From Escherichia coli (GTDB lineage Bacteria > Pseudomonadota > Gammaproteobacteria > Enterobacterales > Enterobacteriaceae), in NCBI RefSeq assembly GCF_050320075.1, contig NZ_CP190018.1: 64,000 nucleotides of DNA; one strand, 5' to 3'. Made by a program: the position numbers and the translations under genes. Each line of letters begins with the position of its first letter. Within the stretch, counting starts at the first letter, position 1. Shown here piece by piece: positions 36,170 through 43,802 of the stretch. A model generated the notes under the pieces. That model did no database searches. It worked only from the letters and a program-made list of their open reading frames with translations, and was not told the DNA's origin.

Positions 36170-37063
36170 ATTAGGGGACTGGACAGATTACGTCTCTCCT
36201 CGCTTAACAAGGGCTGACGGAGGGTAATAATTGTCTATAGCTATCTTCTTAGCGATGTCTTTCTGGTATCACATTGGATCGGTGCAATTATTTTTCCTTT
36301 AATACCCATTATGTTAAGAAATTCAGAAACAGCTGTAATCTCATTGTTTTTTTCATTCGTCTTGATCTTCCAAGGAATCTGACTGTGCATTATTGAGAAC
36401 ACACTAATAACGTGAATCGCTCCCTTGCGACGACTCTTGTCATAAGAGTACCGGAGCGTTTTTCCATCAATTGCAATGACGTCTTTATCATCTGAAGAAT
36501 GGCAGTCAAGCATCCAGTTAATAAAGCACTCATAAAATTTTTCAGGACTGATACAGGATACAACTCTGGCAATGGTATCGTGAACAGGAATACCATTATC
36601 AAAATCACCATATTGCTTCAAAAAATCGAGATGTGTTTCCCCAAAATCCTCTATATCTTCCCAGCCTTCTGCACCCGAAATAACGGCACAAATAGTCAAC
36701 AGTAGAATATCCGATAATTTATGTTCCACTTTCCAGGCTTGTCTGTAATCGGGGATAATAGAAATATGTCCCATCAATTTTTTAAGTTCCATTTTGTTCT
36801 CCTTAATTATGTAAGGAGTATTTGATCATGTATACGCAATAAAAAACAGCTTCAGGTAATGAGGAATATCTCAATTGTTAAACATAAAATGCGAATTGTC
36901 TAGTACAAAAAAGCAGCGTTACGTGATCTTTCCGTGGATCGTCAAATTGTTCGAGAGAAAATACCAACATGATGGATTTTACTGTAAAAGTAATGTCGTA
37001 GTTTAAAAACTCATCATCCGGTAAAGCCTTGTGGGGCGTGGGCTTTCATACTTTTACCCTGAT
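36170..37063 (-). mobile_element. Truncated H-repeat (ISAs1-family) element remnant
   Basis: 5' end region (aacatgatggattttactgtaaaagtaatgtcg...cttgtggggcgtgggctttcat) is shared with the second H-rpt copy at about 43700..43800; the coding region breaks off after about 180 codons, next to the cyclase gene stop. Confidence 0.6.
36241..36792 (-). pseudogene. H-repeat-associated (ISAs1-family) transposase, 3'-truncated
   Basis: 183-aa N-terminal fragment ([21 protein letters not shown]...) aligning with the N-terminus of the copy at 42493..43629. Confidence 0.75.
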
Positions 37064-37377: not shown

Positions 37378-37863
37378 TCATATTTTTAATATAGCCCCAT
37401 GAGCTATAGGATCAAAACCTTCTAACCATGAGGTGTTTTTATCGAATAATGCATCTGTTATATTTATATCGCCATATCTATCACATAATAAATTAGCGCC
37501 ACATAAGTCAGCACCAGAAAAATTTGAATCTTTAACGTCTGCATTGCAAAAGGTTGAATTAGTTAATATAGCACCCTCAAAGTTTGCACCTATTGACCTT
37601 GAATTACTAAAGTCACTTCCAGTGAAATCTGAGTTATTAAGAATAGCGTTCATCAGAGCCGCATTGCGAAAGACAGCATTTCTAGTTGATGTATGTTGAA
37701 TCATTACATTTCTTAAATGGGAATTTTCAAATTTCGCCCCATCAAGACAATAACCATTGAGGATGGCACGATGTAGATCCATCCCGCTAAAATCATATCC
37801 AGCAAGAGTGGTACTATCTATATCAAGAAATTTATTGGTTATTAAAAACGCGATTCTTATCAT
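37378..37863 (-). CDS. ydcD: Pentapeptide-repeat protein, probable immunity protein for the Rhs C-terminal toxin
   Basis: 161-aa product made of A(D/N)Lxx-type repeats ([27 protein letters not shown]); its ATG overlaps the rhs TGA (ATGA); AT-rich. Confidence 0.75.
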
Positions 37864-40800
37864 CTATTCCCCCAATCATCTAACTCCGGAAAAATTTGGC
37901 TAAACGGATATAGTGGTGCCGATAATGGACGCGTACCTGGCCGCTCAGGAGGAAGTTTATCACATAACAGACCCGCAACCATCCTGTGATTACCATTAAC
38001 AATCACATTCCCATCCATATCAACCGGTGGTGCTCCACTACCATCTTCCAGCATTTGTACGTAGTGAGCTACTACGGGTACTGAGACTTTTTGTTGTACT
38101 GTCAACAAGGGACTGTTGGCCACAACCATCCTGATGTTTTCAGGTGTCGTAGGTAAACATTTAGTCTTCTCTTGACTAAAGGTATCATCCCACAATTTTG
38201 TTAAACCCATCACTGCCTGTTGTCTGTATTTATCCATGGGGTCAGCAATCAACCAAGATGGACCTGACTGCTCTATGGAATCTTCTCCGGAGAGACCCAA
38301 CGGATCTATCTTAGTAGTTGGATTCAATGGATACTGATACAGGTTCCATGCACCTCTTAGCCCAATGGGATCCTGGGTGATATACCGCCCCTGCAACGGG
38401 TCATAGTACCGGTTGCGGTTATAGTACAGCCCCGACTCCTCATCATACTGCTGCCCCGGCAGACGGTACGGCTGTTGCAGTTGCTGCGCGCTGGTTTCGC
38501 CCAGCAGGTTTCCCCACTCGTCATACTCCCCCTGCCACGCCGTTTCCCCTTCCGGGCTGATGAGCGCCTGCGGCAGCCCCCGGTGGTCGCAGTGGTAAAG
38601 ATGAAGTGTCCTCTCCGGGATGTATTCCGCCTCCATCTGGTTTTTCATCTGTTCCGCCGTCAGCCCGCACTGCTGAAGCCATGCCTCACTCTCCGCACTC
38701 ACCGCACCCGCGCGCAGTTCCCGCTCCAGCCTCCCCAGCATCACCGACAGCTCCGCCGGTAGCGTCACCCCCGTGTCCTCCTGCAACACCTCCGCCAGAC
38801 TCCGGTGCCGCGCCTTCGCCTGTTCACCATTCTCTGTTTCGATTCTGATGAGCGGCGTGAAGCTCCCCGGCTGGTATACCGTCTGGATACGCGTGGTGCC
38901 GGTCTGTACCGTCGTCAGCCTGTCACCGTCCCACCCGTACCAGGTCTCCTCCGGTTTACGCGACAGCGACATCCACCCCGTCAGGTCACGCTCCCGCCGC
39001 CACACCCGTTTCCCCGTCCGGCGGCCCAGCGGGTCATAGAGGTAGCGGCTCTCCACCTGTGGCTCGCCGTGCTGTATCCGCGTGTAGAACACCAGGCGGT
39101 GCTGGCTGTCGTAATGGTAGTGGTGCGTCCGCTCGTCGTGCATCCGTATCACCCCTTCCGGGATACGGTCCGTCTTCTCCGCCAGCCTGCCGTATTCATC
39201 GTAGCGGTAGACATAGTGCGCATCTTCCGTGATGCGGTTATCCGGCCACGCCGTGAAGGTGCTGTCCGGGTGCAGTTCCGGGTCCGGCAGCCGGTTTCCT
39301 GCCGGGTCCGTCGCATACGGGATATCGATATCCAGGTTCGCCGCCGTGGTGTGAACGCCCGTCAGTCTTCCCGTGTCGCTGTAACGGTACTTCCGGCTCT
39401 CCTGCGGGCCGCTGATGCGCACCAGTTGCCCGTTATCGTTCCACGTATACTCACGGTCAAGCTGCGGAAGGTTCAGGTGCCTGCTCCGGAGCTGCCCTGT
39501 GAGGGTGTACGCCGTGGCCTGTTCGTACCCCGCTGTACTGCCCGCCCCGCCGAAGCTGCGGGCCGTCTCACGGTGCAGCCGGTCCCGCGTGTACTCGACC
39601 AGCGGCGTTCCGCCCAGCTTCATCCCCGCAAGATAACCGCTGCCATACGTCAGCCACTCCACCGGCGGCAGACCGTCCGGCTCCTGACGGGTCGCCAGCC
39701 CCTGTTCGCTGTAGACGTGCCTCGTCTCATGCTCCCACAGCATCTCCCCCGTCTCCTGGTTCTCCACCGTCTGCCGTTCGCCCGTCAGGCGGCCTTTATC
39801 GTCATAGCCGTAGTGGACCGCCACACGGTGGCCTTCGCTCAGGTGGCTGATTTCTGTCAGCCAGCCGTGGTCGTCATACTGCCACTGCTCCGCCGGGTCG
39901 CCGTTCACCGTCCGGTGCGTGATGCGCCCGGCGTCATCGTAGTACCACTGCGTGACCTGCCCCTCATCCTCGCTGCGGATGAGCTGCCCTGTGGCGCTGT
40001 ACCGGTAACGCTGTGTCCTGCCGTCAAAGCCGCGCTGCTCCGTCAGCCTGTCCACCGGGTCATACCGGAACGTGGACTGGCTGCCGTTCTCGTTGGTCAG
40101 CACGGTGATGCGCCCGGCGGCGTCATACTCCATGCTGCGCGTCAGTCCGCCCTGCGTGGTGCTGACGGCCTTTCCCCACGCATCATACTGTGTCTCACTC
40201 CGGCTGCCGTTCGGGGCAATGATAGCGGTGAGGTCGCCTGCGGCGCTGTACTCATAACGGGTTTCACGTCCCTGCGCATCCTTCTGACTGACCAGTTGAC
40301 CACGCGGGTTATAACTGCTGTAAGTGCTGATGCCTTCCTCCCGGTGAACCGCCGTCCTCTGACCGTACCGGTCGTATTCATACCGCGTCGTGTACCCTGA
40401 ACAGTCCGTAAATGCCTGAAGCTGACCGTACCGGTTTCGCGTTATTCTCCGCCTCACCCCGGTTCCGTCTTCCACCGCACAGGGCAGGCCACTGCGGGAA
40501 GAATCATAAAACCAGCGCGTAATGTTACCGTTGCGCGAGACCTCTTCCGCCAGCCTGCCCTGACGGTCATATTTCCGGCTGCGGCGCAGCCCGTCCGGGT
40601 ACGTCACTGACGTCAGTTGCAACTGGTTGTTGTAACCATACCGTACCGTCCTGCCGTCCGGCAGTATCACTGAAGTCAGCTTTCCCGACGCCATATGCAG
40701 CCGGTACTCCGTCCGCCGTCCCGCCGCATCCGTCTGCGCCTTCAGCCTCCCCGCCTCATCATACTCGCTGCGGGTGATGCTCCCGTCCCCATACTCCTTC

Positions 40801-42071
40801 TTCACCACCCGCTTCAGGCCGCCCTCGCCCTCCGTGTACAGCACCTCCCGCCGGTTCAGGCTGTCCGTGATGGTCACGCGGTCCTGCCCGTACTCAAAGC
40901 GGTAGTCCAGCCCCTCCGGGTTGACCTGCTCCGTCACCCGACCGGTATCATCATACCGGTAGCGGCTCTCCGGCCTCCCCGCATAATGGTGCGCCACCAT
41001 CCGCCCGGCGTGCTCCGCATCATAAGTAAACCCGCGCACCTGCGTCCCGCTGCGGTCATACACCGCCCGCAGTTCTCCGCTGGCCGTGTACGTGTAGCGC
41101 GCCAGCGGCGCAGTCGGCAGTTCATCCGGGTATGCCGGGTCGTGTGTCAGCCATACCGCCTCCAGCCGGATACCGTTATCGGCACCGTACTCTGTACCGG
41201 TGGGCAGCGTGTCGGGGAAAAACTGAGAAGAGGAAACAGAACGGGGACTGGCCGGAGAAGATAAAGAAGACTCGCGCTGTTTACGGAAGGCTTTCGCCCG
41301 CTGCGCCTGTGTGGTCAGCGCCAGATGAAAACGGCGGCCCGCGCCGTCCGTCACCCCCGTCACCGCGCCCGCCGCTTCCCCCTCTGCCGCCCGGTGGAAG
41401 GCCAGCGTCCGCCCGAAGCCGTCCACCACGCCCGTCAGCACCCGGTATGCGGGCGGCTCCGGCGGCAGCACCTCGTCCGCCTCCGGCACCCGCTCCGGCC
41501 AGCCGAGTATCCACCACGGCCCCTGAAGGCTGTTTGTCGCCAGGTACACATGCGGGCTTAAGCGGAGACTCTCCGGCAGCACCTGCCAGAGCGCGCTTAG
41601 CGGCTGCGAACTGTGCTGCTCCGCCACCCCGCCCCTTGCCAGCCAGAACGACTCGCTGCGGCTGTAGCTTATCTCGCCGGGAAACAGCGGCTCAAAGTGA
41701 ATGCTCCTGCCGCCACTGTCGTTGAGTATCAGTTCCCGCTCATGAACCTGTAAGCGGATATCGAAGGGCGCTTTCCAGCCGGGACCAAACACCCCCACCG
41801 GCGCGGGTGTCCTGGTCCGGTAGCTGCTGTAGGCGCGGGAAAGAATAAACGGCAACGGGCCGGGCAGCGCAAGATCCGTCTCGCCCGGCAGCACCTTCGC
41901 ACCCAGTAGCGGGTTCACCGGGTTACCCTTCTGCTCCTCCACCGGGCTGTTGGGACACACCGAGCAGGCCACTCCCGTCGGCGCACCTATCAGCACCCCC
42001 GCTGAACCCTGCACAATATCCAGTCCCTTGCGGGTCATATCGCCCTGTCGCGCCGCCGGTTTTCCGCTCAT
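37860..42071 (-). CDS. rhsE: Full-length Rhs family polymorphic toxin (PAAR-like N-terminus, YD-repeat shell, variable C-terminal tip)
   Basis: 1403-aa product; N-terminus [13 protein letters not shown] (PAAR-type); many YD repeats; DPIGL core-boundary motif about 175 residues from the C-terminus; GC-rich core with an AT-rich tip. The gene symbol follows K-12 synteny, where this gene is a truncated pseudogene as I recall. Confidence 0.85.
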
Positions 42072-42090: not shown

Positions 42091-42282
42091 TTATGGTTTT
42101 ATTCTGAGTGCAATCCATACTGATTCATAACCAGTGAATAAGATTTCCCCGAATAATCTATATAAATTAGCGAAGTCCTCTTCACTAATTAACCGTAAAA
42201 TCCCGTACCAATGAAATATAAAAATAACCACCCACACAAATTTATTGCAAATATTATTTATTATTGTATATACATCATTCAC
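42091..42282 (-). CDS. Hypothetical small hydrophobic protein upstream of rhs (GTG start; may be spurious)
   Basis: 63-codon ORF in a very AT-rich region ending 19 bp before the rhs ATG; no recognisable motif. Confidence 0.3.
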   Translation of the reverse strand: MNDVYTIINNICNKFVWVVIFIFHWYGILRLISEEDFANLYRLFGEILFTGYESVWIALRIKP

Positions 42283-42479
42283 TGAACGTTCTCAAACTGC
42301 ATACCTTAGAACCATCAATTAAAGCCACAACAAAAAAAATCGATTACTTTATGTCGCATGACAAATATGAATTACATATTAATCAACCTTAAAAACAATC
42401 ATCTCTTATAATTAACAGCATACCATGAGAAACACAAAATCAATTTACCATGCATACCAGGAGCATAATTAACCTCTCA

Positions 42480-43802
42480 CCGCAGGGCGAAATCATGAAG
42501 GCCCGCAGCCAGCAAGGATTAGAGAAAGGTATTCATTCTTACGTCCTGCCCGCTTTTGCTTGCGTTTAATACCCGCTTTAAAGCTATTCTCTGCGGTCAG
42601 TAAATTCATCGCGATATGTCGACAAACTGCCAGATTTTCTCCCGCTTCTCCACGAACAATCTGGCATTCATCTTCCCGCATCCCCATATCAAGTCGCCAG
42701 TGCAGTTGATTTTCTACCGACCAGTGTGCTCGTGTTGCTTCCAGGAGTTCTTTCGCCGTAAGCGTCACCGAACTTATGTAGTAGCGAAGAATACACTTCT
42801 CTGATTTCACCGCTGTTTCTCCTTCCTGTCTGCTCGCCAGCACTATTCCTATCGTGCTCAGCTCTGACCATTCATAAGCTAAATCACCCAGAGCGGTTAA
42901 ATCATGGCTCACAATGCAGCATCGTGTATCTTCCCGTCCATGCCCTTTTTCCTGCGTGCTGTAACTGTCATACCTCTCACCCAGCCACATTGTCGGCGAG
43001 TACCCGTTATCAAACGCCTCCGCTAATTTTCCCTGATTTCCTTTCAGCGCCAGCAGGTAACCGGCTTTCTTTTTCAGAATTTCACGGGCGATTATATGCT
43101 GGCAACCCATTGCATCCAGCGTGACCAGACACCCTTTTAATTCCAGCAACTGGAGCCGTTCCGGGATCGCCGTTATCTCATTCGATTTTGCCCCTGTTTT
43201 CACCTGCCCCAAAACCAGACGATTTTCTGCGCTAAAAGCACTGACCCTATGGATCACGGCATTACGTTTCGATTTATCGTAAGTACCCCGTAATGACTTA
43301 CCATCAATCGCCACAACAGAGCCTTCAGACAACGTGTGACAGTCCTTCATCTACTGGATAAAAAGGGGCTGTAATTGTTTTGCTGAAATCATTCCCATCA
43401 CTCGGGCAATCGTGTGATGGGAGGGGGTGCCATTTTCAAAATCACCATACAGGCGTAACCATTCCAGATGCTCCTCACCAAAATCAGCAATTTCTTCCCA
43501 TCCTTCAGCGCCACCGATAATGGCGGTGATCGTCAGAAAAAGGATATCCGCCAGGCTGTAACTGGTTTTCCAGGACTGGCGATAATCGTGAATAATTGAA
43601 ATTTGATCCAAAAGGCTTAGTCCGTTCATGGTGTGCTATCCATCAAAAAGAAAGGATAAGATCACACTGAAATAAGATGGTCAAATTGATCGAAAAAAAA
43701 GATCAACATGATGGGTTTTACGATAAAAGTAATGTCGCGATTTAAAAATTCATCATTCACCAAAGTCTTGTGGGGCGCGGGCTTTCATGCTTTTTCCCTG
43801 AT
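42480..43802 (-). mobile_element. H-repeat (ISAs1-family) element upstream of rhs
   Basis: About 1.3 kb unit holding an ISAs1-type transposase reading frame; 5' end sequence shared with the remnant at about 36900..37063; boundaries approximate. Confidence 0.6.
42493..43629 (-). pseudogene. H-repeat-associated (ISAs1-family) transposase interrupted by an in-frame amber codon
   Basis: ORF-track pieces 43351..43629 and 42493..43350 are contiguous in one frame, separated only by TAG (plus-strand cta at 43351..43353): ...LQPLFIQ*MKDCHTLSEG. Confidence 0.8.

Follow-up and report, generated by a model that had tools for sequence, protein, structure and literature searches.

The 64,000-nucleotide stretch of Escherichia coli DNA analysed here (contig NZ_CP190018.1, referred to below as the window) carries an ISAs1-family insertion sequence (IS) between an RHS core protein gene and the yncG pseudogene. 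The features of the locus, with the evidence used to place them, are as follows.

42483..43800, minus strand: complete ISAs1-family IS of 1318 bp, delimited by the ends of homology to the intact relatives L004, L005 and L006
43776..43800, no strand assigned: terminal inverted repeat on the 5′ side of the transposase, reading inward CAGGGAAAAAGCATGAAAGCCCGCG, matching the other end at 20 of 25 positions
42483..42507, no strand assigned: terminal inverted repeat on the 3′ side of the transposase, CAGGGCGAAATCATGAAGGCCCGCA, with the same 20/25 match to the other end
43354..43629, minus strand: N-terminal transposase piece, codons 1-92, with the whole PF13808 domain (ORF list, domain match)
43351..43353, minus strand: amber TAG replacing the Trp93 codon TGG (sequence, translation, W in 24/24 homologues)
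42493..43350, minus strand: C-terminal transposase piece, codons 94-378 plus TGA, with the PF01609 domain (ORF list, domain match, alignment)
37860..42071, minus strand: intact RHS core protein gene, 1403 aa, WP_001563834.1 (annotation, PF03527, DUF6531)
37378..37863, minus strand: gene for a pentapeptide-repeat protein, overlapping the Rhs stop codon (annotation)
36241..36792, minus strand: second ISAs1 remnant, of the ISEc1/H-rpt type, truncated and frameshifted (annotation)
44041..44647, minus strand: yncG pseudogene, glutathione S-transferase homologue (alignment with the intact yncG of L002 and L003; PGAP 'frameshifted; internal stop')

Positions 43351-43353 of the window read cta on the plus strand, that is, TAG on the minus strand. 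Translation of the minus strand from 43632 to 42490 gave one frame in which this TAG is the sole internal stop (...AKQLQPLFIQ*MKDCHTLSEG...); the joined frame begins MNGLSLLDQ and finishes AGCGPS*, with the terminal TGA at 42493-42495. In the ORF list the same frame is represented by two directly adjacent entries, 43351..43629 (minus, 92 aa) and 42493..43350 (minus, 285 aa). Sequence, translation and ORF list are all in agreement with the first-pass annotation, which had described an in-frame amber codon dividing an H-repeat (ISAs1) transposase into two contiguous ORFs of the same frame.

The N-terminal piece matched PF13808 (DDE_Tnp_1_assoc) over residues 8-92 (E=2.8e-28, profile positions 2-86 of 88), and the C-terminal piece matched the catalytic domain PF01609 (DDE_Tnp_1) over residues 102-343 of the joined sequence (E=1.7e-22). 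The scores of the joined sequence against the two profiles (94.4 and 79.4 bits, respectively) exceed the Pfam cut-offs in both cases. Among 5.8 billion protein clusters, thousands of two-domain proteins of 376-378 aa were retrieved, which their sources call 'ISAs1 family transposase' or 'predicted transposase YbfD/YdcC', and the PF13808 + PF01609 architecture was common to all full-length matches. Alignment of the joined sequence with 24 homologues (51-83% identity) extended over all 378 residues with zero indels. Since the two pieces are complementary halves of one architecture and align end to end, free of indels, with intact 378-aa homologues, these data indicate that the two ORFs are one interrupted transposase gene and no chance juxtaposition.

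The position of the stop is occupied by Trp in each of the 24 aligned homologues (51-83% identity), and the residue that follows it, Met94, is invariant in this alignment. Residues D109, D172 and E306 also correspond to invariant columns, all of them kept in the stop-bearing copy; their motif context (AIDGK, DAMGCQ, HWxxEN) suggests that they form the catalytic triad. As Trp is encoded by a single codon, TGG, and is found at this position in all homologues, the comparison indicates a TGG>TAG lesion, that is, a G>A transition on the coding strand that appears as C>T at 43352 on the plus strand, with C as the ancestral base. Comparison with intact ISAs1-family transposases, which the first-pass annotation had proposed as a means of identifying the sense codon replaced, gave in this way an unambiguous answer (Trp, 24/24 homologues). 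It also indicates that the ATG opening the second ORF is the ancestral Met94 codon and no newly arisen start. A hotspot of Dcm (CCWGG) deamination was considered as an origin for the lesions at this locus and was rejected by inspection, the ancestral contexts ATCCAGTGGATG and TCGCAGCTC containing no CCWGG.

ISAs1-family elements, as described in ISfinder, are of about 1.2-1.5 kb and have short terminal inverted repeats. In the DNA of the intact relatives L004, L005 and L006, homology to the element starts at CAGGG... and stops at ...CCCTG just past the transposase stop codon, and these limits coincide with the ends of the 1318-bp element. The terminal inverted repeats are imperfect, 25 nt long and with CAGGG... 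termini, and are equal at 20 of 25 positions; the repeat on the 3′ side (42483..42507) extends over the final codons of the transposase gene and its stop. Another pair, 42406-42428 and 43626-43648, was ranked first by the inverted-repeat finder, and was rejected as the IS ends because it overlaps the start codon and does not match the homology ends. Both the 378-codon length and the colinearity are those of the family, in which an uninterrupted ORF of about 370-380 codons is expected, whereas here the ORF is broken by TAG at codon 93; on this basis we regard the element as a defective member of the ISAs1 family. A scan for promoter and terminator consensus sequences gave counts no higher than those of shuffled sequence and was discarded. 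As to the intact relatives, the homologue in L005 (an ENA contig, run ERR2179511) is bordered on both sides by loxP ATAACTTCGTATAGCATACATTATACGAAGTTAT, at about 40-75 and 1480-1515, and the homologue in L004 (a Logan assembly of the same run, ERR2179511) has ordinary genomic flanks; the loxP flanks in L005 are probably an artefact of a Cre-lox mate-pair library or of assembly.

To establish the distribution of the TAG allele, complete E. coli genomes were searched by megablast. The 61 nt centred on the TAG were 100% identical in 140 of 5426 genomes, with one copy per genome that was invariably chromosomal, and 1351 nt across the gene were at least 99% identical in 145 of the 5426. A pattern accepting either TAG or TGG (TRG) matched nine contigs in JGI/ENA metagenomes, all of them with TAG; in these contigs the IS is 99.8-100% identical and lies in the same yncG/Rhs context. 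The same pattern gave 0 matches in 100,044 species-representative genomes, and a TGG allele was found neither there nor among the 5426 complete genomes or the JGI/ENA metagenomes. At the protein level, no intact protein of more than 83% identity was found among 5.8 billion protein clusters, in which the only near-identical entries are C-terminal fragments of 273-279 aa; these are gene calls on the same broken copy. The interruption itself is already known, since NCBI's PGAP annotates the gene in NZ_CP042899.1, which represents the lineage and is 100% identical over the transposase locus, as 'ISAs1 family transposase; internal stop'.

ST38 is the documented type of two matching genomes, 28Eco12 and 266917_2 (PMC6963479). 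Identical TAG codons in 140 genomes and nine metagenome contigs, with no TGG, indicate that the allele has been fixed in a clonal E. coli lineage to which ST38 belongs. They also dispose of sequencing error, proposed in the first-pass annotation as a source of the stop, and of assembly error, in either of which the true codon would be TGG. A one-base difference would indeed restore the ORF, which is a general possibility for any such lesion, but the same TAG was obtained in 140 independently sequenced and assembled genomes, from many laboratories and platforms, and again in the nine metagenome contigs, and TGG appeared in no collection scanned. We consider the probability of an error to be negligible. 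In E. coli, only this dead form of the element appears to be known.

The second amber codon reported in the first-pass annotation, in yncG, is present as well. It lies at 44219-44221 (minus strand), 868 nt from the transposase TAG, and replaces a Gln codon, for which a K-12-like genome has CAG and strain 2021CK-01784 has CAA. In addition, an 11-bp deletion between 44184 and 44183, 35 nt beyond the amber, shifts the yncG frame. These observations indicate that yncG acquired its amber independently, by a CAG>TAG change separate from the event in the transposase gene. The proximity of two TAG codons within 1 kb, which had been hinted at as meaningful, is real as an observation but fails as an argument. 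A single step converts CAG into no stop codon other than TAG, and TGG into either TAG or TGA. With G:C>A:T transitions accounting for both changes, the shared type of stop needs no special cause.

These two TAG codons, 868 nt apart, are what could speak for a suppressor background, in which a supE-type tRNA of the strain reads TAG as sense and both transposase and yncG are still produced at full length. The exact supE (CUA) allele of glnV does exist in E. coli, where it was found in 155 complete genome records, all of them K-12 laboratory derivatives among the 60 matches listed of those 155. Because this count is near the size of the lineage, it was not relied on, and the tRNA-Gln cluster of the lineage was read directly. 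The anticodons of glnU/W/V/X in NZ_CP042899.1 are ttg, ttg, ctg and ctg, that is, wild type; this check covers supE-type suppression at the tRNA-Gln cluster of one lineage genome. No tRNA genes were found within the 64-kb window. Suppression would, moreover, be of little use at this locus. The transposase gene has no other stop or frameshift, but supE would place Gln at a position where Trp is invariant, and the frameshifting 11-bp deletion leaves yncG beyond rescue by suppression, which indicates that this gene is dead regardless of any suppressor. Also, as explained above, the shared stop type is expected from the codons concerned. The amber-suppressor option of the first-pass annotation is left unsupported by these results, including the search for a supE-type allele that it had recommended, which returned wild-type glnV and glnX in the lineage genome, and we find it highly improbable.

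Some of the records with the supE (CUA) glnV allele (NZ_CP010438.1-NZ_CP010440.1, NZ_CP043183-NZ_CP043213 and NZ_CP040663/4) bear labels such as 'K-12 MG1655', 'mouse gut' O16:H48 and 'chicken' isolates, which suggests that they are laboratory K-12 derivatives or have been oddly labelled.

We then considered how the IS is placed with respect to its flanks. Its outer end (43800/43801) is exactly where the yncG flank ceases to be homologous to other E. coli, and the break falls at the same base (window 43801) in about 735 genomes. On the other side, the Rhs-side flank (42100-42482) is confined to genomes of the lineage among the 5426 searched. No direct repeat of 4-12 bp that could represent a target-site duplication was detected within ±4 nt of either IS end, and an artificial empty-site query against the 5426 genomes revealed none that joins both flanks, so that the insertion event is not reconstructable. 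Together, the homology break at 43801, the absence of an unoccupied site from these genomes and the lineage-only Rhs-side flank indicate that the IS is the boundary, on the yncG side, of a variable island; the arrangement resembles a junction between conserved DNA and island DNA rather than a simple insertion. The IS is present as a single copy at one locus in every carrier genome, rather than in the multiple copies of an active element, and neither a second copy nor a moved one was seen in any of the 145 matching complete genomes.

With regard to the age of the lesion, pairwise dN/dS values against intact relatives were about 0.03-0.05, with saturated dS. Branch-specific dN/dS is unusable here, dS being saturated against the nearest relatives, and only dN and the pairwise ratios were used; the branch dN of the stop-bearing copy was slightly raised (0.056, vs 0.044 for the nearest relative). 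Besides W93*, three substitutions downstream of the stop, L158R, D190G and V195L, affect otherwise invariant positions. Counting the stop, the copy deviates at 4 invariant columns and at 6 columns with at least 90% conservation; for intact family members these numbers are 0-4 and 0-9, respectively. Decay beyond the stop would thus be at most slight, with a deviation count at the upper end of the range of intact members but within it. The low dN/dS and the only slightly raised branch dN argue that the transposase was under purifying selection for nearly all its history and that its inactivation is recent compared with its split from known relatives.

Altogether, the data point with high confidence to an ordinary nonsense pseudogene that arose by one point mutation and became fixed in a clonal lineage. 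Pseudogene decay is the sole survivor of the three explanations offered in the first-pass annotation, given that TGG>TAG is fixed, that error is excluded and that supE suppression lacks support. According to this explanation, a G>A change on the coding strand (C>T at 43352, plus strand) turned the Trp93 codon TGG into the amber TAG, and translation from the native start stops at residue 92, where the PF13808 and PF01609 domains meet. With no full-length transposase, the 1318-bp IS is expected to be immobile. The mutation would have arisen once, either in the ancestor of the E. coli lineage including ST38 or before the arrival of the element there, and the dead IS, a neutral relic, would since have descended vertically along with the adjacent Rhs toxin island, the allele persisting by neutrality in a young clone. 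Both the loss of transposition activity and the neutrality of the allele are what we infer from the sequence data.

The ATG of Met94 abuts the TAG (UAGAUG), so the catalytic domain could in principle be made on its own by termination-reinitiation; low-level natural read-through of the TAG may also occur. This arrangement bears on a different reading, that of a functional split gene in which a 92-aa N-terminal, putatively DNA-binding product, with or without a reinitiated catalytic domain, acts as a regulator or inhibitor or takes part in reassembly. N-terminal transposase derivatives are inhibitors in other systems (IS1 InsA, IS911 OrfA, Tn5 Inh), and such truncated inhibitors of other IS families provide an analogy. 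The stop is also well placed for a split, after profile position 86 of 88 in PF13808 and 9 residues before PF01609, and the allele is kept, without further disruption, in 140 genomes. However, Met94 is invariant in the family, so that the adjacent ATG is ancestral and represents no adaptation, and no Shine-Dalgarno-like sequence precedes it (upstream CCCCTTTTTATCCAGTAG). The IS has neither moved nor multiplied in any genome, and there is no second copy of it on which a regulator could act. Retention is fully explained by clonality, the copies being 99.8-100% identical, too little variation for any signal of selection, and the substitutions at invariant positions of the catalytic domain suggest relaxed constraint. 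For these reasons a functional split gene is improbable in our judgement. Slightly less probable still is its specific form in which the 92-aa domain is kept as a DNA-binding regulator, e.g., at the IS end 411 bp upstream of rhs; if true, such a retained regulator would be a first step to the domestication of an H-repeat transposase.

The nonsense pseudogene favoured here has counterparts among known elements. Like the ISAs1/H-repeat elements long recognised at E. coli Rhs loci (ISEc1; YdcC, YhhI and YbfD of K-12), it encodes a single 378-aa PF13808 + PF01609 transposase, measures about 1.3 kb, has short imperfect terminal inverted repeats and lies beside an rhs gene. Its protein differs from the ISAs1 transposases of Salmonella, Citrobacter and Serratia, with which it is only about 51-53% identical and which we take to resemble the classical E. 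coli H-rpt type. The nearest intact relatives (no more than 83% identity) come from metagenome and Logan assemblies, followed by those of Oceanisphaera and Vibrio (61-67%). The element also differs in position from the H-repeats found among the C-terminal tips downstream of rhs, as it lies upstream of the rhs gene. Transposition of H-rpt has not been observed, according to the E. coli W genome paper (PMC3032704). In the one portion of the published IS table of 28Eco12 (ST38) that was consulted, ISEc1 copies are listed, including a truncated ISEc1 about 6 kb away, and the 1318-bp element does not appear (PMC6963479). This absence from that portion of the table, together with the 83% identity of the nearest intact proteins, suggests that the element may be unnamed in ISfinder.

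A similar case is yncI of K-12, the rhsE-linked H-repeat pseudogene, which is likewise an ISAs1 transposase pseudogene and occupies, in an island beside yncG/ansP, the equivalent place on the chromosome; in the K-12-like genome (L003 2133-3277) it is annotated as 'frameshifted; internal stop'. Unlike the element studied here, yncI is of the classical H-rpt type, lies on the other side of the rhs gene and carries different lesions, and the rhsE of K-12 is truncated whereas the Rhs gene of the window is intact. A TAG inside a coding sequence is also a feature of the laboratory amber mutations read by supE44 (glnV CUA) in K-12 derivatives. The present TAG differs from them in being a natural, fixed pseudogene lesion in a lineage whose tRNA-Gln cluster (NZ_CP042899.1) carries no suppressor allele.

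In practical terms, annotation should merge the two ORFs into a single pseudogene instead of counting a pair of small genes, and neither suppressor tRNAs nor recoding has to be invoked. As a minor clonal marker of the ST38-containing lineage, the TAG allele and the IS/yncG junction could be of use. Beyond correct annotation, the importance of the lesion is small.

Regarding the surroundings of the IS, the RHS core gene lies 411 bp downstream of it in the same orientation, and the pentapeptide-repeat gene overlapping the Rhs stop codon probably encodes, judging by its position, the cognate immunity protein. The ISAs1 remnant on the opposite side of the Rhs island (36241-36792) is frameshifted after about 150 residues and keeps Trp at the position equivalent to that of the amber (FINWMLDCH). 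Dead transposase genes, one from each of two subfamilies, thus stand at either end of the island.

Among E. coli strains, different toxin islands are exchanged at the site next to yncG. In the window it holds the IS, the Rhs gene and the pentapeptide-repeat gene. It is occupied by a PAAR-VgrG-M35 metallopeptidase module in strain 2021CK-01784 (L002 1-7000), and by yncH, a truncated rhsE, ydcD and two H-repeats in K-12-like strains (L003 900-6950). In four metagenome contigs (L009, L010, L011 and L013), the IS and the yncG flank are 99-100% identical to those of the window, and the Rhs core (window 38300-42000) is only 92-98% identical, which suggests that rhs undergoes recombination or gene conversion while the adjoining dead IS stays unchanged. 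Finally, mcbR is a pseudogene with an internal stop in strain 2021CK-01784 (L002 13178-13843), an unrelated nonsense lesion in this neighbourhood, but in another lineage.
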